Source of the DNA: Verrucomicrobiia bacterium
GTDB taxonomy: Bacteria > Omnitrophota > Omnitrophia > Omnitrophales > Aquincolibacteriaceae
NCBI GenBank assembly: GCA_035495615.1
Contig: DATJFP010000026.1
Coordinates: 15,635 to 79,634, forward strand
Length of the DNA stretch: 64,000 nucleotides
Direction: 5' to 3'
Made by a program: the position numbers and the translations under genes. The notes beneath the pieces are model-generated. The model was given only the letters and a program-made list of their open reading frames with translations. It was not told where the DNA came from and made no database searches. Numbering within the stretch: the first letter of the stretch is position 1; the number at the start of each line of letters is the position of its first letter. Positions 1-54,725 of this stretch are shown here, piece after piece.

Positions 1-554
1 ACAATCTTACCACGGATTTTGTTTCCCCGGCGCGTGGGTTTTTCTTCCGGAAACCGCCGCAGCGTTTTCAGCCGCGGGCCGAGGCTCGCGACGCGTCCGC
101 CGCTGGCAAGATAGGCCGCGGCCGGGGCCATGATGTCCCGGCCGTGAAACGTGTTCGAGATTTTGGCCGCGAAAGCGCGGGAAACCGTATGGGCTTGCAG
201 CTTCGGGAAAAGGCCCGCGAGAAATCCGAGAAGTCCGTTGTCGGGCGCGATAAAAACGTAACGGCCGGTGTCCACGGCCACGATCTTTCTCGCCGTGCCT
301 ACGCCGGGATCGACCACGGCCACGAAAACCGTGCCCTGGGGATAATATTTGAAGCAAGCCTCGAGAAAATAACCGGCCCCGCGAACATCCAGCGGCGTGA
401 TTTCGTGAGAGAGGTCCGTGATCACAGCCTGCGGCGCGCGCAGCCGGAGCACGCCTTTCATGGATGCGGCATAGGGGTCGCGCGTTCCGAAATCGGTCAA
501 AAGCGCGATGGTCCGCGCCCGCGGGCGGGGCCTCATTCCGTTTTTCTCAGCCAT
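1..554 (-). CDS. S-adenosyl-L-methionine hydroxide adenosyltransferase family protein (DUF62/SAM_adeno_trans), 3' end runs off window
   Basis: Own minus-strand translation from ATG at 554: MAEKNG...ALLTDFGTRDPYAASMKGVL...VAVVDPGVGT. LTDFG-DPY-MKGV is the hallmark N-terminal motif of the chlorinase/fluorinase-like SAM hydroxide adenosyltransferase family. Not in the ORF track because no stop lies inside the window. Confidence 0.55.
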   Translation of the reverse strand, partial: MAEKNGMRPRPRARTIALLTDFGTRDPYAASMKGVLRLRAPQAVITDLSHEITPLDVRGAGYFLEACFKYYPQGTVFVAVVDPGVGTARKIVAVDTGRYVFIAPDNGLLGFLAGLFPKLQAHTVSRAFAAKISNTFHGRDIMAPAAAYLASGGRVASLGPRLKTLRRFPEEKPTRRGNKIRGKI

Positions 555-1804
555 TCCGAAGCGTGGACGATTTTCCTTTCCACGGAATCAAAGACGTGGA
601 TGCAGTTGCGGCCCTGACGTTTGGATTCCAGAAGCGCCGCGTCCACCCACTTGATGAGAAAGTCGGTGTCGATCGTCGACTGAGGAATTTCCGTCGTGAC
701 ACCCAGGCTGATCGTAATGTGGAAAGAATCGCGCGACGGCATCACGACGACGAGGTCAGGGTCTTGCTCCACGCTCTGGCGCAGCTGCTCCGCGGCGCGC
801 ACGGCTTCGGGAAGCCTCTGCCCCGGCAGGATGATGCAGAATTCGTCGCCGCCGTAGCGGAAGATGAGATTGCGTTCGGAAAGCGTGTTCTTGACCTTGT
901 GCGCCACCAGCTGGAGGATGCGGTCGCCCTGCTGATGGCCGGCCAGGTCGTTGATGGTCTTGAAGCCGTCCACGTCGAACATGATCAAGGAGAAAACCTG
1001 CAGGCATTCTTTGTCTTTGTAAATCTCGTTGGTCAGCCAGCGGGTCATGTAGCTGCGGTTGTAAGCGCCGGTCAGCGTATCCACGAGCGCGAGCGTCTCC
1101 ACCCTCTCATAGGCGCGCTTCAGGCGGACCTGGTAATCCTGCAAGACGCGGTTTTCCCTCTCGGTCTCGCTTTTCAGCGTGAATTCTTTGAAGCGCATGG
1201 TCTCGTTCATGCGCGACGCGACCATGGAAACGAAGATGAAGAATAGCAGGTAGCTGTTGGACTTGATGAACCAGGCCCATTCCACTTCCTGGCGCCCGAG
1301 CACGATGCCGAGGGGATAGAAAATGTAGAGCGGCACGCATACGCTGGCCGTCGCCGCCGCGCCCCACGGCATCAAAAATCCCATAAGAATAAAAAACAGC
1401 GTGAACGTCACCATCTGGTCGAAGCCCGTCTGGACGTTGAGAATGCGCTGGAGCATGGTGGTGGCGCCGACGAAGATCGCAAGCATGATCGTAAATGCGT
1501 AGCAGCTCTTCCGGAACGGCGGCACGAAGCTGAAGACGCCGAAGCACAGCAGCAGCGCGCTCGAAACGAACTCGATCCGGACGGAAGGATTGATGTTCGG
1601 CGCGGCGTTCGTGTTCCATTCCGTGATGAACGAAATCATGTAAAGCAGGAACAGAAAAACGACGCAAAGACGGAAACGGGGCACGGCAAGCCGTTCGGTT
1701 TCCATCTCGAAGAACGACTTCACTTCGTCGTTGACGGTGGTCTGGGCCTGAAAAAAACGGACCAGATGGGCGGATGTTTTTTTGTTCGCTGCTGCCATGC
1801 GCAC
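533..1804 (-). CDS. membrane-anchored diguanylate cyclase (multi-TM N-terminus + GGDEF domain)
   Basis: 423 aa ORF. Hydrophobic N-terminal half, C-terminal RYGGDEF motif with upstream DVDGFKTINDLAGH. Confidence 0.85.
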   Translation of the reverse strand: MRMAAANKKTSAHLVRFFQAQTTVNDEVKSFFEMETERLAVPRFRLCVVFLFLLYMISFITEWNTNAAPNINPSVRIEFVSSALLLCFGVFSFVPPFRKSCYAFTIMLAIFVGATTMLQRILNVQTGFDQMVTFTLFFILMGFLMPWGAAATASVCVPLYIFYPLGIVLGRQEVEWAWFIKSNSYLLFFIFVSMVASRMNETMRFKEFTLKSETERENRVLQDYQVRLKRAYERVETLALVDTLTGAYNRSYMTRWLTNEIYKDKECLQVFSLIMFDVDGFKTINDLAGHQQGDRILQLVAHKVKNTLSERNLIFRYGGDEFCIILPGQRLPEAVRAAEQLRQSVEQDPDLVVVMPSRDSFHITISLGVTTEIPQSTIDTDFLIKWVDAALLESKRQGRNCIHVFDSVERKIVHASEWLRKTE

Positions 1805-9726: not shown

Positions 9727-10731
9727 TTAGGCCAGGGGCGGTTCCTGGACCGCAGCTCCCATGCGGGAAATGGTCCCCGGCTTCAGCCCGCCCCTCATGG
9801 CAAAAACAAGGCCTGACGCGATGCCTGACCCGTAAATCAGGATGTTCATCAGCAGCGAATGCGCCAAGGCCATTTCCGACGGCATGTACATGGAAAAAAA
9901 GGCGATCGCGCCCGCCTCACGCACGCCAAGGCCGCCCAGCGACGGCGCCATGCTGGCCACGTTCACCATGGGAACCAGCATGAAGAAGACGATGGGGCTC
10001 AAATCCAGTTTCAGCGCCCTGGCCACCCAATAATACAGCATGATGAGCACAAACTGCCCTGCGATCGAGATCCCTACGCAGAACGCCAGAACCTTGCCAT
10101 GAGCATGACAGCCGTGGATCGCGGAATAAAGCTTGCCGAGAATGTCGCGAATTTTATGCGACGGCACGAGAAAAGCGAATCGTTTGAAGAAAAAGGCCAG
10201 CCGCTCGTTCGCGAAACAAAACAGCATAACTGCGATCACGCCCAGGAACACGAAGGCTACATAGCCGATTCGTGGGTCAGGCAGTTCCCCTTTCAATTGG
10301 AGGCGTAAGATGGCCACCAGCGCAATCAAGCTGATCGCGGTTAGCCCGACAAGCCGGTCGACGAGAATGGCGGTCGCGGTTTCGATTTTTTTTCCTGAGT
10401 GCCTGTACGCATAGTAAAGCTTGGCCACATCTCCGCCCAATGCCGACGGCAGGAAGAGATTGAAAAAAAGGCCGACGACGCATAGATAAAAGGTTTGCCC
10501 GTAAGTCAGGATGACATCCTGGATTCGGAAGATTCGGTACAGCCGGTAGGCCATGATGACCTGCACGATCCAATAGCCCAAGGCTGCCACGCCTAGCCAT
10601 TTCCAATCCACGTCCCCGCGGAGAATGGCAAAGGACTCGTTCAATTTGCCTCGGAGGAAATAACAAATGACGGCAAGGGCCCCGAGGCTCACGGCGATGC
10701 GAAGCAGCGGACCGGTAAGGAGTCGCTTCAT
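9727..10731 (-). CDS. flippase-like domain membrane protein (LPG_synthase_TM / UPF0104 family)
   Basis: 334 aa polytopic membrane protein with N-terminal KLNESF...DWKWL pattern. Resembles the MprF transmembrane flippase domain. Confidence 0.65.
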   Translation of the reverse strand: MKRLLTGPLLRIAVSLGALAVICYFLRGKLNESFAILRGDVDWKWLGVAALGYWIVQVIMAYRLYRIFRIQDVILTYGQTFYLCVVGLFFNLFLPSALGGDVAKLYYAYRHSGKKIETATAILVDRLVGLTAISLIALVAILRLQLKGELPDPRIGYVAFVFLGVIAVMLFCFANERLAFFFKRFAFLVPSHKIRDILGKLYSAIHGCHAHGKVLAFCVGISIAGQFVLIMLYYWVARALKLDLSPIVFFMLVPMVNVASMAPSLGGLGVREAGAIAFFSMYMPSEMALAHSLLMNILIYGSGIASGLVFAMRGGLKPGTISRMGAAVQEPPLA

Positions 10732-11141
10732 GAATGCTGGACGAATTTGAGTTGAAGCTCCGGGAGCACGGCATTGAAAAAATCCGCTTCCTGAGCGCTT
10801 AGGTGGCTTTCAGTCTTTTGTTTGAGGGCAAGAAGAAGCTCGATGATCTCACGCGCCGCGGCAAGGTCCACGTTCGCGGGCGCTCCCGGCGGTCCCTGGA
10901 TTTCACCGAGATGGAACATCACCTGATAAGCCAGCGAGTTCAAAAGCCCCATGAAAGCGGGCGATGTCTGGACTTGGGACTGCGTCTGGGGGCGCGATGC
11001 CGGTTTAGGCGGCGCAGATGCGGCGGGTTTGGATTGCGAAGGCGGGGGTGGGACTTCTTCCCCTCTGTCCTTGGCAACCTGATCCTTCCAGCTTTCGTCC
11101 ACTTTCTTTTCCGAAAACCGGACGTCTTTTGGGTATTCCAT
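10728..11141 (-). CDS. DUF1844 domain protein
   Basis: FMGLLNSLAYQVMFHLGEIQGPPG core and acidic/Pro-rich N-terminus. Confidence 0.5.
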   Translation of the reverse strand: MEYPKDVRFSEKKVDESWKDQVAKDRGEEVPPPPSQSKPAASAPPKPASRPQTQSQVQTSPAFMGLLNSLAYQVMFHLGEIQGPPGAPANVDLAAAREIIELLLALKQKTESHLSAQEADFFNAVLPELQLKFVQHS

Positions 11142-11173
11142 TTACTCTCTCCCGTAATTGCTGCACATGACGT

Positions 11174-11220
11174 AAAAAAAGAGGTTCCTAGCCAGTGGGG
11201 ATCGGTGGGCTAGGAACCTC
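11174..11220 (-). terminator. rho-independent terminator downstream of the STAS-PilZ gene
   Basis: Perfect 13-bp stem GAGGTTCCTAGCC...GGCTAGGAACCTC followed on the minus strand by TTTTTTT. A second small hairpin AGAGACC..GGTCTCT lies at ~11228-11248. Confidence 0.55.
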
Positions 11221-11325
11221 TACAGGTGAGAAGAGACCAGGGGGTCTCTATGGACCAACAGATTTATCACGGGCAAGCAGAAAGTGTCAATCGAAAAGAT
11301 TTATGACCGGAGGGACGGCAAAAGG

Positions 11326-12066
11326 CTAGAGCTTGACTTCGTTATCGGCCTTGAACTCGACACCAAGACCTAACTGCTTCTTGCGCAATTCTTTGCGGGT
11401 AATGATCCCCTTGAGATTGTATTCTTCCGGAAAGTTGGCGCTAGGATAGATATGGACCTCGACATCCATGCCTTTCATGTCATCGACCAGGGTGGCAAGG
11501 TTGTTGCCGATCTCCAGGTCCAGATATTCGGTGAACATGCCGCCTTCGCTGATGTTGGTCGCGATGGCCCGGGTCATGACGGTTTTCCCGTCTTTGAATT
11601 TGAGCTTTAATTCCACGGGAATGGCCACATGCATACGTTTGCTGCGGCGGCGTTCCATCTCGGTGCCGAGCGCCGGCTCGTCTTTGGTGTCGAGAAGGAA
11701 TTCCTTGTCCTTCTCTTTCTCGAGAAGGAAAGGTCCGAAGTCTTCCGCCACTTCTTTTTCTGAGGCGCAAATCCTGACATTGCGCGGAACGTACGTGTCT
11801 TCAAGGCTGTGCAAAAGGCCGTCGGAAGCGCCATAAATAAGACTTTTTTGAGGACGGATGCAGGCTGCCAAAAGTTTACGGAGGCCCAGCGAATCAAGGA
11901 AGTCCACGTACTGGAGATTGATGATAATGCGCTGCAGGCGATGGCGCCGGATATTGCGCTGGATTTTTTCAGCCACTTCCTGGACGGTTTCCTGGGTGGG
12001 CTCGCCTTCTATATCAAACACACAAACGCTTCCGATTTCCCGAGTCGTGACTCTCAGCTTTGCCAT
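11326..12066 (-). CDS. STAS-domain / PilZ-domain fusion protein (putative c-di-GMP receptor)
   Basis: N-terminal STAS-like region (VCVFDIEGEP...INLQYVDFLDSLGL). C-terminal PilZ motifs RRRSKRMHVAIPV and NISEGGMF. Confidence 0.7.
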   Translation of the reverse strand: MAKLRVTTREIGSVCVFDIEGEPTQETVQEVAEKIQRNIRRHRLQRIIINLQYVDFLDSLGLRKLLAACIRPQKSLIYGASDGLLHSLEDTYVPRNVRICASEKEVAEDFGPFLLEKEKDKEFLLDTKDEPALGTEMERRRSKRMHVAIPVELKLKFKDGKTVMTRAIATNISEGGMFTEYLDLEIGNNLATLVDDMKGMDVEVHIYPSANFPEEYNLKGIITRKELRKKQLGLGVEFKADNEVKL

Positions 12067-12325
12067 GTGCTGGTCTTCCCTTTCGGGAAGCCTCCTTGTC
12101 GCGATACTGTGCAGGACTTTTCTCTAACTGTTAGAAAGATAGCTTACGTGTTGTAATTATGCAAATCAAATATCACTTTTTTTTAATTATTTATAGCATC
12201 TAGAGTTACAAAGAAATTCTAAGCATAAAACCTAAGTAATTTCATAGCATCCCCTGTCAATTTGAAGCGTATTTAGGAAGGTTATTTTCCCTTGTGAAAA
12301 AACTGCTAGTTTCCAAAAGGGCCGA

Positions 12326-13660
12326 TTATTTTGCGGGTTTCTGAGGGCGAAGACGATTTAACAGATCGTGGAATTTTTTTTCAAATCCATTTTCGGTAGG
12401 GAAATAATATTGTTTGGACTGCGGCATGTAGGATTGCTTGACCACGTTCCCTGGATAATCATGGGGATAAAGGTAGCCTTCGCCGTGTCCGAGGCGGGCC
12501 GCGCCTTTATAATGAGTGTCACGCAAATGCTGCGGCACTTCTTGGGCCGGTTCTTTTTTGACATCCTCCAAGGCATTACCGATGGCCATGTAACTGGCAT
12601 TACTCTTGGGACACGAGGCAAGGTAGGTGACAAGCTGGCCCAGGATGATTTGCGCTTCGGGCATGCCGACGAATTCGACGGCATGCATTCCCGCGGATGC
12701 AAGGACCAAGGCCTGCGGATCGGCATTGCCAATGTCCTCACTGGCCAGAATGAGCAGACGGCGCACAATAAAACGCGGGTCTTCGCCCGCATAAAGCATC
12801 TTGGCCAGCCAGTAAACCGCCGCGTCGGGATCCGAGCCCCGGACGCTTTTGATGAATGCGCTGATCGTATCGTAATGATAATCCTCGTCGTGATCGTAAT
12901 ACACGACTTTGCGCTGGCAGCTCTCCTCCGCCGCGCCAAGATCGATGACGATGACGCCCGCTTCGTTCTTCGGCGTAGTCAGGACCGCCACTTCCAGAGA
13001 ATTCAGAGCCCGGCGCGCATCGCCGGAAGCCATGCCGACCAGATGCCTCAGCGCGTCTTCGTCCGCTCGAATCTTCAAATGGCCATAGCCTCTTTCGGGA
13101 TCGGCAATCGCGCGTTTCAAAAGTTTAATGAGATCCGCTTCTTCAAGGGGCCTTAATTCAAAAAGAAGCGAACGCGACAAAAGCGGGCCGTTCACGGAAA
13201 AGGAGGGATTGTGCGTCGTGGCGCCGACAAGAATGATCGTTCCATTCTCCACGTCCGGCATGAGAACGTCCTGCTGGGCTTTGTTGAAGCGGTGGATTTC
13301 GTCGACAAAAAGCACGGTCCTCTGCTTCGAAGCCCGCCGCCGCGCATCCTCGATGGCCTTTCTCAATTCCGCGACATTGGAGGTCACGGCATTGACGGCG
13401 ACGAAATGGGCATTGCTGAGCCGTGAAATGAGACGCGCGAGCGTTGTTTTTCCGCATCCGGGAGGACCGTAAAAAATAGCGGAAACGAGACGGTCGGCTT
13501 GAAGCGTACGGCGCAGCAGTTTCCCCTCGCCTAAAAGGTGGGCTTGTCCGACGACTTCGTCCAGCGTCCGCGGACGCATGCGGGCGGCCAAAGGAGCATT
13601 GGGCGAAAGCTCGGAGGAAGCAGACGGCTTGTCCTCGCCGAAGAGGTCTTCCGAATCCAT
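12326..13660 (-). CDS. rarA: replication-associated recombination protein A (AAA+ ATPase)
   Basis: GPPGCGKTTLA Walker A, VLFVDEIHRFNK, C-terminal MgsA-specific region. Confidence 0.9.
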   Translation of the reverse strand: MDSEDLFGEDKPSASSELSPNAPLAARMRPRTLDEVVGQAHLLGEGKLLRRTLQADRLVSAIFYGPPGCGKTTLARLISRLSNAHFVAVNAVTSNVAELRKAIEDARRRASKQRTVLFVDEIHRFNKAQQDVLMPDVENGTIILVGATTHNPSFSVNGPLLSRSLLFELRPLEEADLIKLLKRAIADPERGYGHLKIRADEDALRHLVGMASGDARRALNSLEVAVLTTPKNEAGVIVIDLGAAEESCQRKVVYYDHDEDYHYDTISAFIKSVRGSDPDAAVYWLAKMLYAGEDPRFIVRRLLILASEDIGNADPQALVLASAGMHAVEFVGMPEAQIILGQLVTYLASCPKSNASYMAIGNALEDVKKEPAQEVPQHLRDTHYKGAARLGHGEGYLYPHDYPGNVVKQSYMPQSKQYYFPTENGFEKKFHDLLNRLRPQKPAK

Positions 13661-27793: not shown

Positions 27794-27969
27794 TTTTGTC
27801 CTGCGGGATGAGATTTCTACGCGATAGCGCCGTCCTTAACTCCTGTCCGAGTCGGCAAATGGAATCGCTTTTAGCGATAAAAAAAGAGCGTCCGGCCGCG
27901 AATAATAATGAGCCCGAAGCTGTTGCTATTGAATGTTTTGTTAGGTATGTTCTTTTCCAGGGGGTTTGC

Positions 27970-29067
27970 ATGGCAAGCAGCTTAAACCACGAAGGATTCC
28001 TCGAATACGCCAGCAAACGGATGATCCGGTACGCGCACAGCGAAAAATTCATGCGCTGGGTATGCCGCTACCTGATCCTCCATCTCCGCCCCACGCAGGT
28101 TTCGGTCGCGCTCTATGATGCCACGCTGCAATCCTTCTGCATCCAGGTTTCCGAAGGGCATCCGAAGGTTCCCTCGCGCCTGATCAGTCTAAACACAAAC
28201 AGCCCGCTGATCCAATGGTTTTTGAACCGCGGCGAGGCCAGCCACATCCGCCGTTCGCGCCGCGTCGTCACGTCGAGCTGCATGGCGCAAAAAGAAGGGC
28301 CGCGGGAACACGAAATTTACGAAGAGCTCGTCCGCCATCACGTCGAGGCCTGCGTCAGGATCGAGACGCGTGAGCGCCTTGCCGGCTATCTCCTCATCGG
28401 GCCGCGTGAAACCCAGCAGCCGTACAGCAAAGAGGACCTCACGTTTTTTCAGATCCTGGCCAACGACATCGGTATCGAAATCGAAAAGGAAGAATACCTT
28501 CATCATGCCCGCCACGATCCCATCACCGGACTGTATAACCGCGCCACGCTGCAGGAAACGTTGGGGGCCATTTTCGAAAAAGAACGGCACAACGACTTCG
28601 CCGCGGCCATGATCGACATCGACCATTTTAAGTCGGTCAATGACCGGTACGGCCATCTTGCCGGCGACCAGGTCATTCGCTGCGTGGCGGATTTCATCCG
28701 CTCCGGCATCCGCAAAACAGACACGGCCTTCCGCTACGGCGGCGAAGAGTTTCTGGTCTTATTCAAGAAGAACGCGAGAAATCCTGACCGCATCATCTCG
28801 GATGATGAATTTCAAAACGACATCATCCTCGCAGCCGACCGGCTTCGGCAAAAAGTGAACGCCCGCCCCGTGACGTGCCTTCAATACGAAATCCCCCTCA
28901 CCATAAGCATTGGATTGACATTTCTGACTCCCCAAACCCGCAGCACTGCGTCCCTGATTGCCGAAGCCGATCGCGCCCTTTATCAGGCCAAGAACGGCGG
29001 GAGAAACCGCGTGGTCGTATTCGCGGAAAGCGAGAGCCGGCAGCTTATTTCGAGAAGATCCCTTTGA
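27970..29067 (+). CDS. GAF-domain diguanylate cyclase (GGDEF)
   Basis: RYGGEEF motif with upstream DIDHFKSVNDRYGH. N-terminal GAF-like region. Start taken at MASSLNHEGF inside the longer ORF from 27796. Confidence 0.8.
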   Translation: MASSLNHEGFLEYASKRMIRYAHSEKFMRWVCRYLILHLRPTQVSVALYDATLQSFCIQVSEGHPKVPSRLISLNTNSPLIQWFLNRGEASHIRRSRRVVTSSCMAQKEGPREHEIYEELVRHHVEACVRIETRERLAGYLLIGPRETQQPYSKEDLTFFQILANDIGIEIEKEEYLHHARHDPITGLYNRATLQETLGAIFEKERHNDFAAAMIDIDHFKSVNDRYGHLAGDQVIRCVADFIRSGIRKTDTAFRYGGEEFLVLFKKNARNPDRIISDDEFQNDIILAADRLRQKVNARPVTCLQYEIPLTISIGLTFLTPQTRSTASLIAEADRALYQAKNGGRNRVVVFAESESRQLISRRSL

Positions 29068-31600
29068 GGCCGCGGGAATTGAGCGACGCGATGTCGGCCA
29101 GCGCGCGCGGCACGGAAAAGCCGCCGGGAAGGGCAATGTATTTCGGACGCCACTGCGGCCCGAACTTTTCTTTGTAATCGCGAAGGCCTTCGAAGTTGTA
29201 GAAATATTCGCCGCGCGAGAAAATGAAAGCGCCCAGCTTGTTCCACAACGGTGCGAACTCGCGGTTCTCGAGCCCCGCAAGAGGCGCCATGCCCACGTTG
29301 AACCACTGATAGCCCTGCTCTTTTCCCCAGAGGAAAAGATTCAGGAAAAGATAATCCATGGATCCGGCCGGCGCGAGATCCGGGTCATAGCGCATCAAGT
29401 CCACGGACAGTTCGCTTTTCTCCGCGCCCAGCATGACATTGGCAAACGCCACGGGCTTGCCTCCATACCGCATGACTGCCATGGGAAAATGACGCAGATA
29501 CGACACGTCGAAAAATCCGAGCGAGAAGCCTTTTTCCTTGGTGTTTTTCTTGGCGAGCCATGCGTCGGAAATCGTCTTCAGCTCCGCCGCGCGGCCGGGC
29601 ACCGCCTCTTTATCCACCCACTCGAAGGAAGCGCCCTCTTTTTCCATGCGCCGGAGGGTGTAGCGCATTTCTTTGCGCCCGCCGCCTTCCAGTGAAAACG
29701 CGGGAAGGAAAACGCGGCCTTCCTCACCCATCTTGATCAGGGCAAATCCCGCGTCGAGATAAAGCGGCAAATACTGCGGATTCACTTCGTAGAAAACGGG
29801 CATGCCGTCGTGACGGTCGACAAGCATGCGGAAAGACGTGATCAGGTCCAGCCAGGCATTGCTGTCACCAATCGGGTCGCCGAGCGACACCCAGCTCTTG
29901 CCCTGGACGCCGTACATGATGAACGCCAGGCCGTCCCGGCTGAAAAGAAAATTCTTATCGCCGCTCAGGGCGAGATAAGAGGTGGTATTGGACGAGCGCA
30001 CAATGATGTCGAGGGCGCGGGAAAGTTCTTCCGGTGAAGGCGGATGCACTTTGATCGTGGTCGTTCGCATGAGATTGGCGGCGGAAAGGATGCCGGCAAA
30101 GGCCATGACGCCTACCACGGCGCGCATGGAGCGCGCCGCATCCCCGCGCAGGCTGAAGTGCCACCAGAGGTCGCCTGAATAATTGACGTGCTTGAACGCA
30201 AAAAGCCCCAGCCATACGGACACACTGATGACGGTCAGGACCGAAAGAAGCCATGCCGGCGAAAGCGCTTCGCCGAAGAGCGACGCCTTCCGGTAAAAAA
30301 AGGGCCGGCTCGGAACGATCAGCAGGAACATGGCAAACAGGATCACGGCTTCTTCATAGTCAAAACCTTTCATCAGGGAAAACACCATGCCGAAGCCCAG
30401 AAGGATGAGCGCGAAATAATAAGCCGCATCGAGGCGCCGCTGGATGCCCCGCGCGAGGAATAAAAGCAGGACGCCCGCGAGGCTTCCGAGAAAATGCGAA
30501 AGTTCGATGGCCGGAAGAGGCAGGAAGCGCTCCAGCATGGCAAGACGGGAACCGACCGCGGGCGTGGATCCGGAAAGCAGCAGCACCGTGCCTGCAATGA
30601 ACGTGGTCACAGAAAGCAGCGGCGGCACGAACGGCGTCAGAATCTGATTGAAGGCCGCGCCGGCCTTGGCGTATTTCCGCAGATTCTTGAATTCGAGAAC
30701 GGCCAGAAACAGCAGCGACACGAAAAGCGGGAGAAGATAATAGATAAGCCGGTAATAAAGAAGGGAAACGAAAAGCTGGTCCGAAGGGACTCGGTCGGAG
30801 AGCGCGGCCAGAAGCGTCGCTTCGAAAACACCGAGGCCGCCGGGAACCTGGCTGACCATGCCCAGCAAATGCCCGGTGATGAAAAGCCCCACGAAGAAAA
30901 GATAGGACAGCCCATGTCCCTGCGGCAGCAAGACGTAAAGGACGGCCGCGGCCAGCAGCCAATCGGCAAGCGAAAAAAAAGCCTGGCCGAGAGCAAGCCG
31001 CCCTTCCGGCAAACGCAGCTCCCAGTCTTTGATCTTAAAGGAGCGGCGAACGAAGCCGCAGGCCAAAAGATAACTCAGGACTGCAGCGAGAAAGGCAATG
31101 CCCAGCATGCGCACCATTTCGGGACTCAGAAATTGCAGGCCCGGCAAAAGACGGCCGGGAGCGGTCACGAAAGAAAAACCGAGGAGCGCGATAAGGCCCA
31201 GAAAAAAACTCACGCTGTAAAACAGGATAACTTGGGCGGTTTCCAGCGCCGAGAGTCCCCACGTGGAGTACATGCGGTAGCGTACGGCAGCTCCGGAAAG
31301 CGCGACCGCGCCGAAATTATTTCCCAGCGCGCTGGCGATAAACGAGGCCGGAAAAATCTTGGCGTACTTCATGGGCTTGCGGATGTAGCGCAGACCCAGC
31401 CATTCGTAGGACGTCAGCGCCGCGTAATTGAAGGCCGTAAACAGCGCCGCCGCCAGCAGCGGACGCTTGGGGAAATCGGCAAAGTTATGCGTGACGTCGT
31501 TAAAGTGGTGGCCGCCAAGCTCGCGGTAAAGCACCCACAATCCCCCGATAAAAAAAACGAATCCGAGGGAATGAAAAACGCGAAGAAGGAATTTTTTCAT
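29045..31600 (-). CDS. mprF: bifunctional lysylphosphatidylglycerol flippase/synthetase (phosphatidylglycerol aminoacyltransferase)
   Basis: 851 aa. ~14 TM N-terminal flippase domain plus C-terminal synthase domain (DUF2156-like, FANVMLG...YDPDLAPAGSMDYLFLNLFLWGKEQGY). Confidence 0.85.
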   Translation of the reverse strand: MKKFLLRVFHSLGFVFFIGGLWVLYRELGGHHFNDVTHNFADFPKRPLLAAALFTAFNYAALTSYEWLGLRYIRKPMKYAKIFPASFIASALGNNFGAVALSGAAVRYRMYSTWGLSALETAQVILFYSVSFFLGLIALLGFSFVTAPGRLLPGLQFLSPEMVRMLGIAFLAAVLSYLLACGFVRRSFKIKDWELRLPEGRLALGQAFFSLADWLLAAAVLYVLLPQGHGLSYLFFVGLFITGHLLGMVSQVPGGLGVFEATLLAALSDRVPSDQLFVSLLYYRLIYYLLPLFVSLLFLAVLEFKNLRKYAKAGAAFNQILTPFVPPLLSVTTFIAGTVLLLSGSTPAVGSRLAMLERFLPLPAIELSHFLGSLAGVLLLFLARGIQRRLDAAYYFALILLGFGMVFSLMKGFDYEEAVILFAMFLLIVPSRPFFYRKASLFGEALSPAWLLSVLTVISVSVWLGLFAFKHVNYSGDLWWHFSLRGDAARSMRAVVGVMAFAGILSAANLMRTTTIKVHPPSPEELSRALDIIVRSSNTTSYLALSGDKNFLFSRDGLAFIMYGVQGKSWVSLGDPIGDSNAWLDLITSFRMLVDRHDGMPVFYEVNPQYLPLYLDAGFALIKMGEEGRVFLPAFSLEGGGRKEMRYTLRRMEKEGASFEWVDKEAVPGRAAELKTISDAWLAKKNTKEKGFSLGFFDVSYLRHFPMAVMRYGGKPVAFANVMLGAEKSELSVDLMRYDPDLAPAGSMDYLFLNLFLWGKEQGYQWFNVGMAPLAGLENREFAPLWNKLGAFIFSRGEYFYNFEGLRDYKEKFGPQWRPKYIALPGGFSVPRALADIASLNSRGLKGIFSK

Positions 31601-40504: not shown

Positions 40505-40514
40505 TTGCATAGAT

Positions 40515-40695
40515 CGAACAAGCCGAATCCGGATGACGGATCGGGGGACCCAGAGAAGGCTCCGGAGCTCGATGCTTCGGGGCGATAAGCAGCTCGAAAC
40601 TTGGTGTTTTTAGCTATCGGGGCGAATCACTGCAAAGTGAAAGGTTTCCACTCGACCTTAGCCCGACAGCTAACCCCGTAGGCGAAACGGAGAGA
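40515..40695 (+). promoter_or_regulatory. c-di-AMP riboswitch (ydaO/kimA class) in leader of ptsN-like/kimA operon
   Basis: GAAUCCGGAUGACGGAUCGGGGGACCCAG ... GGGGCGAAUC ... GUUUCCACUC ... AGCCCGACAGCUAACCCCGUAGGCGAAACGGAGAG. Conserved blocks remembered from the ydaO motif (GAAUC, ACGG..GGGGGACCCA, GGGGxGAAUC, CCCGAAGG-GCAA-like 3' end). Confidence 0.75.
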
Positions 40696-40796
40696 ACTGT
40701 GCACCGCATTTTCGAACCGCGCTTTTCAATCCTTTCCGTTTCCCCTGGTTTCACCGCCGAAGCGTTCCGCGCAGACGGGCTTTCAAGGAGGACGCC

Positions 40797-43685: not shown

Positions 43686-43736
43686 CTCGTTTTTGACTCG
43701 TCCAATGCCCTCTCCCCGAGTATTTTGTCACGATTA

Positions 43737-43880
43737 ACGACAAGCCGAATCCCGACAGGGATCGGGGGACCCGATAAAGCGGCTCTCAAAGTTTTGAGCC
43801 ATGGGCGAATCCGCCGGAGCGCGGAGAGGTTTCCACTCAACCTCAGCCCGTCAGCTAACCCCGAAGGCGCAACGGAGAGG
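43737..43880 (+). promoter_or_regulatory. c-di-AMP riboswitch (ydaO/kimA class), second copy, abutting the kimA2 start codon
   Basis: ACAAGCCGAAUCCCGACAGGGAUCGGGGGACCCGA ... GGGCGAAUCC ... GUUUCCACUC ... AGCCCGUCAGCUAACCCCGAAGGCGCAACGGAGAGG. Co-linear with the first copy. The conserved 3' AACGGAGAGG contains the RBS for ATG at 43885. Confidence 0.75.
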
Positions 43881-43884
43881 TGTT

Positions 43885-53459: not shown

Positions 53460-53825
53460 TCACTTCAGGATCTCTCGCATCGCCGTGAGAAGGATATCGA
53501 CGTCCAGCGGCTTTTCGAAAACCCGCGCCGCGCCGACTTTCATGGCCAGCTCGAGATACCCTCTGGCCTCGATGCGTCCCCCGCCCGACATCGCGAAAAT
53601 TTTGGCGTCGGGGGATTCCTTGCGCATCACGCGGATGGTCTCGATGCCTTCCTGTTCCGGCATGATGATGTCGGTAATGACCAGATCGATTTCATTTTCA
53701 CGGAAACATTTCAGGCCTTCGCGGCCGTTCGCGGCCACGCTCACCTTGTAGCCTTCGGATTCCAAAAGGTCGCCCAGAGCTTCGCGGATGCCGGATTCGT
53801 CGTCGATGATCAGGATATGCGCCAC
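53460..53825 (-). CDS. single-domain response regulator (CheY-like receiver)
   Basis: ILIIDDE...DLVITDIIMP...KPL receiver residues. Confidence 0.8.
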   Translation of the reverse strand: MAHILIIDDESGIREALGDLLESEGYKVSVAANGREGLKCFRENEIDLVITDIIMPEQEGIETIRVMRKESPDAKIFAMSGGGRIEARGYLELAMKVGAARVFEKPLDVDILLTAMREILK

Positions 53826-53834
53826 GGCCTCTCC

Positions 53835-54725
53835 TTATTTGGCGATCTTGCCATACGAATTGCCCTCGGGCTCGGGTTCCCGCGGCGCCCTGGAAATCTT
53901 CATGGTCCGGAAATTGGGATCGCCCGCGCGGAAATAGCTGATGATCAGCCGGACCGGAAACTTCGGAAATTTTCCGGCATCCATGCCGTGAATCAATTTG
54001 TCCAGCGCCCCGCGTACGGTAAATGCGCGCTTGCGGTAAGGACGGTCCGCGACAAGGGCGTCGAAGATGTCGATGATGGCCACGATCTTCGTGTACTTGC
54101 TCAGTTTCTTGATGCCTTTGGGATAGCCGCTGCCGTCGAGCGTTTCATGGTGTTCATAAGCCACGCGGCAGGCCTCGGTGCCGCCGCGCCCCAGGTAATA
54201 GCGCAGCAGTAAGAGGCTGTTCAGCGGATAGCTGTGCAGGATGCGGTACTCGTTCGAGGTCAGCCGCCCCTTTTTGTTCAGAACGCTTTTTGAAAGGCGC
54301 GTTTTTCCGATGTCATGGACCAAGCCGTAAACAAAGGCCAGGCGCGGATCATAGCCGTAGCTGCGCAGGTCGAGGGCCATCTTCGCCGAAAGCGCCGCGA
54401 TCAGCACAAAATGGCGGTAAGTGTAGGGTGATGTTTTTTTCAGCCGCCGGATTTCGCGGTACAATGAAGACTGGAGGCGGCATTTTTTCGAAATTTCCAG
54501 AATCTTCCGGCGAATCGCGGGAGTCTCGAATACTTTGGCGTAAAGCGGCTCCTCGACCGCTTTTTCCACGTCGCGGGAAAATTCTTTGCTGTTGAGCGAC
54601 CGCAGATCCCGGCAATGGCCTTCGCCTTCGCGGGTCACGCGGCGGATCAAAGCACCGTCCATTTCGGAACCCGCTTTGGCAATCATCCGTCCGTCGATGT
54701 CCCGTAAGTCCGCTAAAATCTTCAT
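53835..54725 (-). CDS. HD-GYP domain c-di-GMP phosphodiesterase
   Basis: LVHDIGK and HHETLDGSGYPKG motifs. Confidence 0.85.
   Translation of the reverse strand: MKILADLRDIDGRMIAKAGSEMDGALIRRVTREGEGHCRDLRSLNSKEFSRDVEKAVEEPLYAKVFETPAIRRKILEISKKCRLQSSLYREIRRLKKTSPYTYRHFVLIAALSAKMALDLRSYGYDPRLAFVYGLVHDIGKTRLSKSVLNKKGRLTSNEYRILHSYPLNSLLLLRYYLGRGGTEACRVAYEHHETLDGSGYPKGIKKLSKYTKIVAIIDIFDALVADRPYRKRAFTVRGALDKLIHGMDAGKFPKFPVRLIISYFRAGDPNFRTMKISRAPREPEPEGNSYGKIAK

Follow-up and report, generated by a model that had tools for sequence, protein, structure and literature searches.

Partner switching through STAS domains and the sensing of cyclic di-GMP (c-di-GMP) through PilZ domains are among the most widespread signalling devices of bacteria, and they have been studied separately. 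Here, we analyzed a gene that encodes both domains in one polypeptide, called STAS-PilZ below, on a 64,000-nucleotide (nt) stretch of an Omnitrophota genome (assembly GCA_035495615.1, contig DATJFP010000026.1). This whole 64-kb stretch is referred to as the window, and all coordinates are those of the window. The closest described systems each resemble one part of the protein. The antagonists SpoIIAA, RsbV, and RsbS share the fold of its N-terminal half and its length of about 110 residues (Foldseek target template modeling (TM) scores of 0.7-0.8 with E about 1e-5, TM1442 included), and the loop of the switch residue together with the N-terminus of helix alpha2 is the best-conserved surface. 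STAS-PilZ differs from them in its consensus proline at the position of the switch serine, in its fusion to PilZ, in a score below the cut-off of the antagonist family TIGR00377, and in having no cognate kinase or phosphatase nearby. YcgR, PlzD/VCA0042, and MotI/DgrA are of similar size and present the same order of an N-terminal domain, an RxxxR linker, and a canonical PilZ barrel. The PilZ half of STAS-PilZ superposes on those of VCA0042 and MotI in Foldseek, and by analogy a domain rearrangement induced by c-di-GMP would be expected. In contrast, the N-terminal domain of these receptors is a PilZ-like barrel, whereas that of STAS-PilZ has the alpha/beta fold of STAS.

Other systems are linked to STAS-PilZ by their logic or by their host. 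In the HsbA-HsbD/HptB pathway of Pseudomonas aeruginosa, a STAS anti-anti-sigma protein is tied to c-di-GMP signalling; this protein is phosphorylated and binds FlgM or a diguanylate cyclase. There, c-di-GMP is an output and not the ligand of the STAS protein, and no PilZ domain is fused to it. The RsiG-sigma WhiG pair of Streptomyces is under c-di-GMP-dependent anti-sigma control, so that, as in the mechanism proposed below, c-di-GMP decides whether a pair of regulatory proteins stays together; its proteins have other folds, with neither STAS nor PilZ, and c-di-GMP glues the anti-sigma/sigma complex (PMC13232838). Finally, small stand-alone pilZ genes follow giant genes in Omnitrophota, that is, in the same phylum and with the same messenger; these are single-domain proteins of about 120 amino acids, and a STAS fusion is unmentioned in that work (10.1101/2023.11.21.568195).

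The gene and its two domains are located as follows:

11326..12066, minus strand: STAS-PilZ coding sequence, an open reading frame (ORF) of 246 amino acids
11725..12066, minus strand: STAS domain, residues 1-114 (Pfam, AlphaFold2 fold, Foldseek)
11350..11655, minus strand: PilZ domain, residues 138-239, with R140-R141-x-x-R144 and N171-I-S173-E-G175-G176 (Pfam, motif conservation, Foldseek)

A first-pass annotation of this DNA had read the gene as a STAS-PilZ fusion, and the Pfam search bears this out with both domains above their gathering scores. STAS is matched by residues 6-103 (34.9 bits for a gathering score of 22.6, E 1.4e-8) and PilZ by residues 138-239 (28.1 bits for a gathering score of 22.5, E 2.7e-6). 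The N-terminal domain is thus STAS, and no PilZN or YcgR match was found for it in the Pfam scan. An AlphaFold2 model built from 121 homologues (mean predicted local distance difference test (pLDDT) 87.2, predicted TM-score 0.84) presents a beta-alpha STAS fold at residues 1-114, a low-confidence linker at 115-147, and a PilZ beta-barrel at 149-238 (pLDDT 86-94). The RRSKR motif at 140-144 sits in the interdomain linker, immediately before the strand formed by residues 149-156. In Foldseek searches against the PDB, the N-terminal half matched SpoIIAA (1til_B, E 1e-5, target TM 0.76), RsbS, RsbV, and TM1442, with target TM values of 0.76-0.80 for SpoIIAA, TM1442, and RsbV, and the C-terminal half matched the PilZ domains of BcsA (5ej1/4p00), MotI (5vx6), and VCA0042 (2rde). 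The BcsA and VCA0042 entries are c-di-GMP-bound structures. Together with the modeled barrel, these matches identify the C-terminal half as a six-stranded PilZ beta-barrel. No single solved chain spanning both halves was found among the Foldseek matches in the PDB.

The residues expected to contact c-di-GMP are conserved without exception or nearly so. In an alignment of 121 STAS-PilZ orthologues, R140, R141, and R144 of the RxxxR motif are identical in 121/121 sequences, as are N171, G175, and G176 of the NxSxxG motif, and S173 is found in 112/121. Both motifs are kept even in two-domain relatives that share only 15-35% identity. Judged from its sequence, the PilZ half carries every hallmark of c-di-GMP binding.

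The STAS half has evolved differently around its switch position. A profile alignment to 1AUZ places Ser59 of the window protein on the phosphorylated Ser58 of the SpoIIAA DSSG motif. Among the 121 orthologues, this column contains 66 P, 18 A, 10 S, 7 Q, 6 D, 4 E, 3 H, 3 L, 3 Y, and 1 T, so that Ser59 is a minority state; the nearest relatives of the window protein, except P0001, have Pro or Ala. The residues near position 59 (L57, L60, G61, R63, K64, L65, R71, and P72) are invariant or nearly so, and so is an arginine-rich stretch of helix alpha1, I39-R-R-H-R-L-Q-R46 (IRRHRLQR). Since the flanking residues are conserved and the serine column varies, the STAS surface is under selection and the phospho-switch is not. 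The protein stays below the threshold of the anti-sigma-antagonist family of NCBIfam: TIGR00377 matches only residues 3-69 with 37.8 bits, for a cut-off of 53.45, and the phosphorylatable Ser/Thr of that family is not conserved. A distant two-domain sub-branch (P0134, P0137, P0138, P0139, P0146, and P0178) keeps a D-S-L-G serine at the position equivalent to Ser58, which is possibly the ancestral phosphorylatable state. It was also observed that the STAS domain contains two conserved cysteines, C100 in 121/121 orthologues and C69 in at least 90%, and this pair could be a redox or metal site.

The family is small and, as far as visible, confined to Omnitrophota, since the homologue, profile, and genome scans all returned names from this single phylum. 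A word-indexed search retrieved 272 homologues, of which the best 120 are all about 240 amino acids long with 57-80% identity; every named homologue among these 120 is from Candidatus Omnitrophota/Omnitrophica. When 1.84 billion cluster representatives were searched exhaustively with a profile, only 84 matched at E<=1e-3, about 45 of which are full-length two-domain proteins of 225-270 amino acids, and a second search seeded with distant members again returned Omnitrophica names only. A scan of one genome per species yielded 51 loci, and all of the named ones are from Omnitrophota. The existing annotations of the homologues read only 'PilZ domain-containing protein' or 'anti-anti-sigma regulatory factor', and no description of a STAS-PilZ fusion was found in a full-text literature search; a paper retrieved there names the two domains only apart from each other. 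A survey of PilZ architectures lists PilZN, PilZNR, HlyD, REC, GGDEF, EAL, HD-GYP, MCP, and CheC as fusion partners, and STAS is missing from that list (10.1101/814665). STAS-PilZ is therefore an undescribed, phylum-specific pairing of two well-known domains with a serine-less STAS.

We lean, by a little, towards the view that STAS-PilZ is a soluble c-di-GMP receptor with a layout like that of YcgR, PlzD, or MotI and an N-terminal STAS domain, in which c-di-GMP, and not phosphorylation, would set partner engagement. This view follows from a switch serine that is dispensable on a STAS surface that is conserved. The PilZ barrel and the RRxxR motif in the flexible linker would bind c-di-GMP, and the ligand, placed at the junction of linker and barrel, would shift the seating of the STAS domain against the barrel, as in YcgR, PlzD/VCA0042, and MotI. 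The protein would then act as a phosphorylation-independent partner switch, with the level of c-di-GMP deciding whether the STAS surface holds a putative protein partner. In the window, the gene would be expressed as a separate transcription unit, from a sigma-70-like promoter through a 5' untranslated region (UTR) of about 62 nt to a hairpin followed by seven U (hairpin-U7). The domain identities, the folds, the conserved motifs, the phyletic range, the synteny, and the conservation of promoter and terminator are observed here, whereas ligand binding, domain movement, and partner engagement are inferred.

The c-di-GMP-gated partner switching proposed in the first-pass annotation thus keeps the part that relates to c-di-GMP and to a conserved partner surface (STAS fold, conserved alpha2 surface, PilZ motifs) and loses the part modeled on the classical antagonists (serine not conserved, TIGR00377 below cut-off). 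A search for RsbW/RsbU-like partners, suggested there as a check, was negative for the regions covered: neither the about 40 scanned ORFs of the window nor the conserved neighbours in 52 loci include a kinase of the RsbW/SpoIIAB type, a PP2C phosphatase, or a sigma factor. The window does encode proteins of c-di-GMP metabolism, namely a GGDEF protein (533-1804, minus strand), a GAF-GGDEF protein (27796-29067, plus strand), and a REC protein followed by an HD_5 protein of the HD-GYP type (53460-54725, minus strand). With these GGDEF and HD-GYP-type proteins, c-di-GMP is plausibly both made and degraded in this organism. For a small genome, two GGDEF proteins and one of the HD-GYP type within 64 kb amount to a dense set of c-di-GMP proteins.

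The region upstream of the gene contains the following features:

12067..12325, minus strand: AT-rich spacer from the rarA stop to the STAS-PilZ start, promoter region and 5' UTR of about 62 nt
12136..12164, minus strand: putative sigma-70-like promoter, -35 TTGCAT (12164-12159), 17-nt spacer, -10 TATCTT (12141-12136)
12123..12135, minus strand: perfect 6-1-6 palindrome TCTAAC-A-GTTAGA, overlapping the deduced transcription start and common to loci L001 and L007
12072..12092, minus strand: 5' UTR hairpin between the AAGGAGG box and the ATG (minimum free energy fold), its 3' arm holding the start-proximal GGGAAG

The spacer (259 bp) is AT-rich, as had been stated at first pass, and the strings TTATAGCAT and TTGTAATTATGC quoted there are present. 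With 36% GC, it ranks lowest among the 27 intergenic regions of the window that are 40 bp or longer, three others being at 38-40%; the lowest 200-bp GC is 31.5%. The background had been put at 60% GC and needs a small correction, as the window averages about 57% (53-61% per 2 kb).

Comparison across loci revealed three forms of the stretch that separates rarA from STAS-PilZ. The first is the AT-rich spacer, 133-266 bp long with a mean GC of 0.31 vs 0.51 for the locus, found in 15 loci including the window. These 15 of the 50 informative loci all fall in the sub-clade nearest the window; elsewhere, coding sequence takes the place of the spacer. In the second form (25 loci), the interval holds a conserved ORF of 52-60 amino acids with the pattern ...KGGP...LSGYMYPxLHRxLRRxERxRKRK, a basic C-terminus, and no Pfam family. 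In most cases, its stop overlaps the ATG of STAS-PilZ, an arrangement that suggests translational coupling and makes this small basic protein a candidate partner of STAS-PilZ. Examples were noted in L042 (5834-6004), L048 (5835-6008), L053 (5843-6004), and L036 (5835-6008), and the ORF is absent from the window. A copy hidden in the window spacer could be ruled out, as stops occur in all three frames, and a tblastn search of the whole window, spacer included, with seven small-ORF sequences from relatives gave no match. Because the ORF is also present in the most divergent loci, its loss in the sub-clade of the window would be the more parsimonious history. In the third form (18 loci, 8/18 of which also have the small ORF), a tandem STAS-PilZ paralogue of about 250 amino acids lies between rarA and the orthologue, for instance in L011 (5253-6008), L015 (839-1579), L032 (2808-3560), and L055 (5113-5841). 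Of four tandem paralogues tested, three have a PilZ match above the gathering score, and the STAS match is sub-threshold.

Conservation within the spacer is limited to what looks like a promoter. An alignment of 14 related short spacers has a mean column identity of 37%, and its only invariant columns are TTG...(17-18 nt)...TA...T, which correspond to T162, G164, T185, A186, and T191 in the window row. These columns mark the -35 and -10 hexamers listed above, with an A-tract just upstream of the -35 box, and would place the transcription start near 12129. A consensus scan missed this pair and proposed another one at 12245-12216; the latter is not kept in relatives, and the conserved pair at 12164-12136 was therefore preferred. 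Read most simply, the spacer thus consists of a promoter, an A-tract resembling an UP element, and about 62 nt of 5' UTR. The palindrome at the predicted start is a possible operator. The 5' UTR hairpin is kept in four related loci with different stem sequences, 2/6 pairs being compensatory in this small sample, and it may modulate translation. In addition, two copies of an 11-mer, TTyATAGCATC, lie 51 bp from each other (12190-12200 and 12241-12251), and ATAGC-N4-GCTAT palindromes occur in related spacers. These palindromes, the duplicated 11-mer, and the hairpin allow for some regulation without demonstrating it. The repeat GATGCTAT has two copies in the window, both in the spacer, and the case for it as an operator is statistically weak, given that 22/100 shuffles of the window also reach two copies.

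The spacer downstream of STAS-PilZ revealed an element of another kind. This spacer runs for 184 nt, from the stop of STAS-PilZ to the start of DUF1844, and its predicted fold is much more stable than those of shuffled sequences (z = -4.78). The following features were delineated:

11173..11254, minus strand: structured RNA of about 82 nt (fold, covariation, covariance model), with a 5' hairpin at 11232-11249, a single-stranded CUCACCU at 11224-11230, and a 14-bp hairpin with a AUCCCCACU loop at 11180-11221, then U7
11261..11290, minus strand: near-consensus promoter of this RNA, -35 TTGACA (11290-11285), extended -10 GTGATAAATC (hexamer 11266-11261)

The hairpin-U7 sequence is conserved across loci whose proteins share only 53-72% identity. 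In an alignment of 24 loci, TTGAC is invariant (24/24) and is followed 17-18 nt later by an extended -10 box with the consensus GTGATATAA; after this promoter come a GAGAC-loop-GUCUC hairpin, the invariant CUCACCU, the 14-bp hairpin with its AUCCCCACU loop, and 6-9 U. The proposed structure is supported by covariation: 93.2% of the cells are paired vs 85.8 +/- 0.7% in shuffled alignments (0/500 reach it), and 13 pairs have double changes vs 6.5 expected (0/500). In slid-partner controls, pairing drops to 31-58%. Helix 2, which was also found independently by RNAalifold, is 99.4% paired, with 7/14 compensatory pairs. Searched with a covariance model, 32 Omnitrophota loci, including 8 that had not contributed to the seed alignment, contained a single copy each, and neither the window nor about 570 kb of flanking DNA yielded another. 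No Rfam family matches 11173-11254 above chance level in a scan of 11000-12500 at E<=10. The gathering-score scan of the whole window with Rfam returned only two c-di-AMP riboswitches and two tRNAs, all elsewhere.

The hairpin was initially taken as the terminator of STAS-PilZ itself, and this had to be revised, as it is part of an RNA that is tied to DUF1844. In L048, the RNA is 3 kb from STAS-PilZ and 59 nt before DUF1844, and in L058 and L059, which are metagenome contigs, it precedes DUF1844 with neither STAS-PilZ nor rarA nearby; the RNA unit thus belongs to DUF1844. It would be either a small RNA with C-rich unpaired motifs resembling anti-Shine-Dalgarno sequences or a leader-attenuator for DUF1844, the flippase-like gene, and accBC. 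Only 8-77 nt separate the RNA from the ATG of DUF1844 in 20/21 measured loci (L013 has 148 nt). A further promoter would in most cases hardly fit there, which favors the leader-attenuator. For STAS-PilZ transcripts, the hairpin-U7 is predicted to be an intrinsic terminator, which would make the gene monocistronic in the window. This RNA is uncatalogued and shows strong covariation, and it may interest RNA biologists more than the protein does.

The genes on either side of STAS-PilZ are as follows:

12326..13660, minus strand: rarA/mgsA, AAA+ recombination factor, upstream neighbour (Pfam MgsA_C, 237 bits)
10728..11141, minus strand: DUF1844 gene, downstream neighbour and first gene past the RNA element (Pfam DUF1844, 60.6 bits)

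The rarA gene is upstream of STAS-PilZ on the same strand in 50/53 loci, and DUF1844 is downstream in 31-32 loci. Both belong to a collinear array of housekeeping genes that reads infC-rpmI-rplT-pheS-pheT-rarA-[X]-DUF1844-flippase-like-accB-accC-(191 amino acids)-pfkA across loci. The synteny with rarA is uninformative as to a functional link, since the whole infC-to-pfkA array is collinear; what this collinearity shows is that STAS-PilZ is a core, vertically inherited gene, with no specific link to its neighbours. Measured against the window copy, mean identity amounts to 58% for STAS-PilZ, 63% for RarA, and 43% for DUF1844. STAS-PilZ is thus about as conserved as RarA, which argues for strong purifying selection on it.

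Additional observations were made around these genes. The flippase-like protein that follows DUF1844 in the array contains LPG_synthase_TM only (9727-10731, minus strand), and a full MprF-like lysyl-phosphatidylglycerol synthase with LPG_synthase_TM and LPG_synthase_C is encoded elsewhere in the window (29045-31600, minus strand). The two c-di-AMP riboswitches are of the ydaO type and score above gathering (40511-40699 and 43733-43884, both plus strand); they precede genes for a PTS_EIIA_2 protein and an amino-acid-permease-family protein, and for a Usp-domain protein. Two DUF4118-HisKA-HATPase kinases with OmpR-type regulators adjoin this region. In L004, a called gene of 58,784 residues (1-1467, continuing upstream) ends about 6.5 kb upstream of STAS-PilZ, and two stand-alone PilZ genes and a YajQ gene are found downstream, which recalls the association of giant genes and pilZ in Omnitrophota.

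The proposed mechanism has to be weighed against other readings of both the protein and its surroundings. If STAS-PilZ were a classical antagonist of the RsbV/SpoIIAA type, Ser59 would be phosphorylated by an RsbW-like kinase, a PP2C phosphatase would be encoded elsewhere in the genome, and c-di-GMP would have a modulatory role. This would fit the alignment of D58-S59-L-G61 in the window protein with the DSSG of SpoIIAA, the rank of SpoIIAA, RsbV, and RsbS as top structural matches, and the DSLG serine retained by the distant sub-branch. It would not fit a position 59 that is Ser/Thr in just 11/121 orthologues, scattered over the family, a TIGR00377 score below cut-off, or about 40 scanned window ORFs and conserved flanks that are devoid of HATPase_c_2-type kinases, SpoIIE/PP2C, and sigma factors, and we regard such a switch as improbable. 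The PilZ half could also be a structural or adaptor domain that does not bind c-di-GMP, like PilZ of Xanthomonas or Pseudomonas, in a protein that is constitutive. Non-binding PilZ domains do exist (10.1101/814665), and the Pfam score of 28.1 bits is modest. However, the non-binders have lost RxxxR and/or DxSxxG, and both motifs are invariant in the 121 orthologues and kept in the distant paralogues, which makes this reading very unlikely.

The neighbourhood invites a different idea, that the STAS domain (SLC26/SulP- or MlaB-like) binds small molecules or lipid carriers instead of a switchable protein partner and links c-di-GMP to the downstream lipid and fatty-acid genes. DUF1844, the LPG_synthase_TM flippase-like gene, accB, and accC are collinear with STAS-PilZ in 28-33 loci, and there are precedents of non-phosphorylated STAS domains that bind acyl carrier protein (YchM of Escherichia coli) or the ATPase of an ATP-binding cassette system (MlaB). 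Yet adjacency says little about function where the whole infC-to-pfkA array is collinear, STAS-PilZ appears to have its own promoter in the window and a strong terminator before the downstream genes, these genes are entirely different in L004, and stand-alone antagonists, instead of the STAS domains of transporters, head the structural matches. We give this idea a low probability. The upstream spacer, for its part, had been proposed to hide a small RNA or to be typical of heavily regulated or nucleoid-protein-bound promoters. Its GC is indeed the lowest among the intergenic regions of the window, and the duplicated 11-mer, the ATAGC-N4-GCTAT-type palindromes of related spacers, the palindrome at the predicted start, and the hairpin by the ribosome-binding region could all be read that way. 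A small RNA or riboswitch in 12067-12325 was rejected: no spacer match was found in the Rfam scan of 11000-12500 at E<=10, where hits were at chance level only (E 2.9 or more), the fold is no better than that of shuffled sequence (z = -0.48), no terminator-like site was found inside the spacer, and conservation is confined to the -35/-10 pair. A heavily regulated or nucleoid-protein-bound spacer would draw weak support from the short palindromes. The shuffled counts of GATGCTAT and the coding sequence found in place of the spacer in most informative loci weigh against this account of the spacer as a whole, which has very little probability.

A soluble c-di-GMP receptor with phosphorylation-independent partner engagement remains the reading that we favor, and some points weigh against it. 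The window protein carries Ser59 and could be phosphorylated in this organism; the search for kinases and phosphatases covered 64 kb of the genome; and the promoter and transcription start are deduced from conservation. A broader and rather doubtful proposal makes STAS-PilZ the sensing part of a partner-switching module that needs no phosphorylation and is peculiar to Omnitrophota: c-di-GMP would directly gate the STAS domain, this domain would sequester or release a conserved partner, and the module would thereby control a core process. That partner would possibly be the translationally coupled basic protein of about 55 amino acids, encoded upstream in about half of the loci, or an anti-sigma-like factor. 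The proposal also draws on the connection of c-di-GMP in this phylum with the giant 'Archaeovorin' genes and the pilZ genes beside them, and it concerns bacteria that are ultra-small and probably host-dependent.

If this broader proposal is true, STAS-PilZ would represent a new wiring of STAS domains, in which a nucleotide second messenger replaces the kinase/phosphatase pair. Selection at the level of a housekeeping gene, a lost phospho-serine, and perfect c-di-GMP motifs together suggest that such a replacement can occur, and the idea is testable with recombinant protein, without cultivating Omnitrophota. What is held about the biology of this uncultivated phylum, with its nanobacteria, its giant genes, and a way of life that is probably predatory or parasitic, has been deduced almost wholly from genomes, and STAS-PilZ adds to it a predicted core c-di-GMP receptor.

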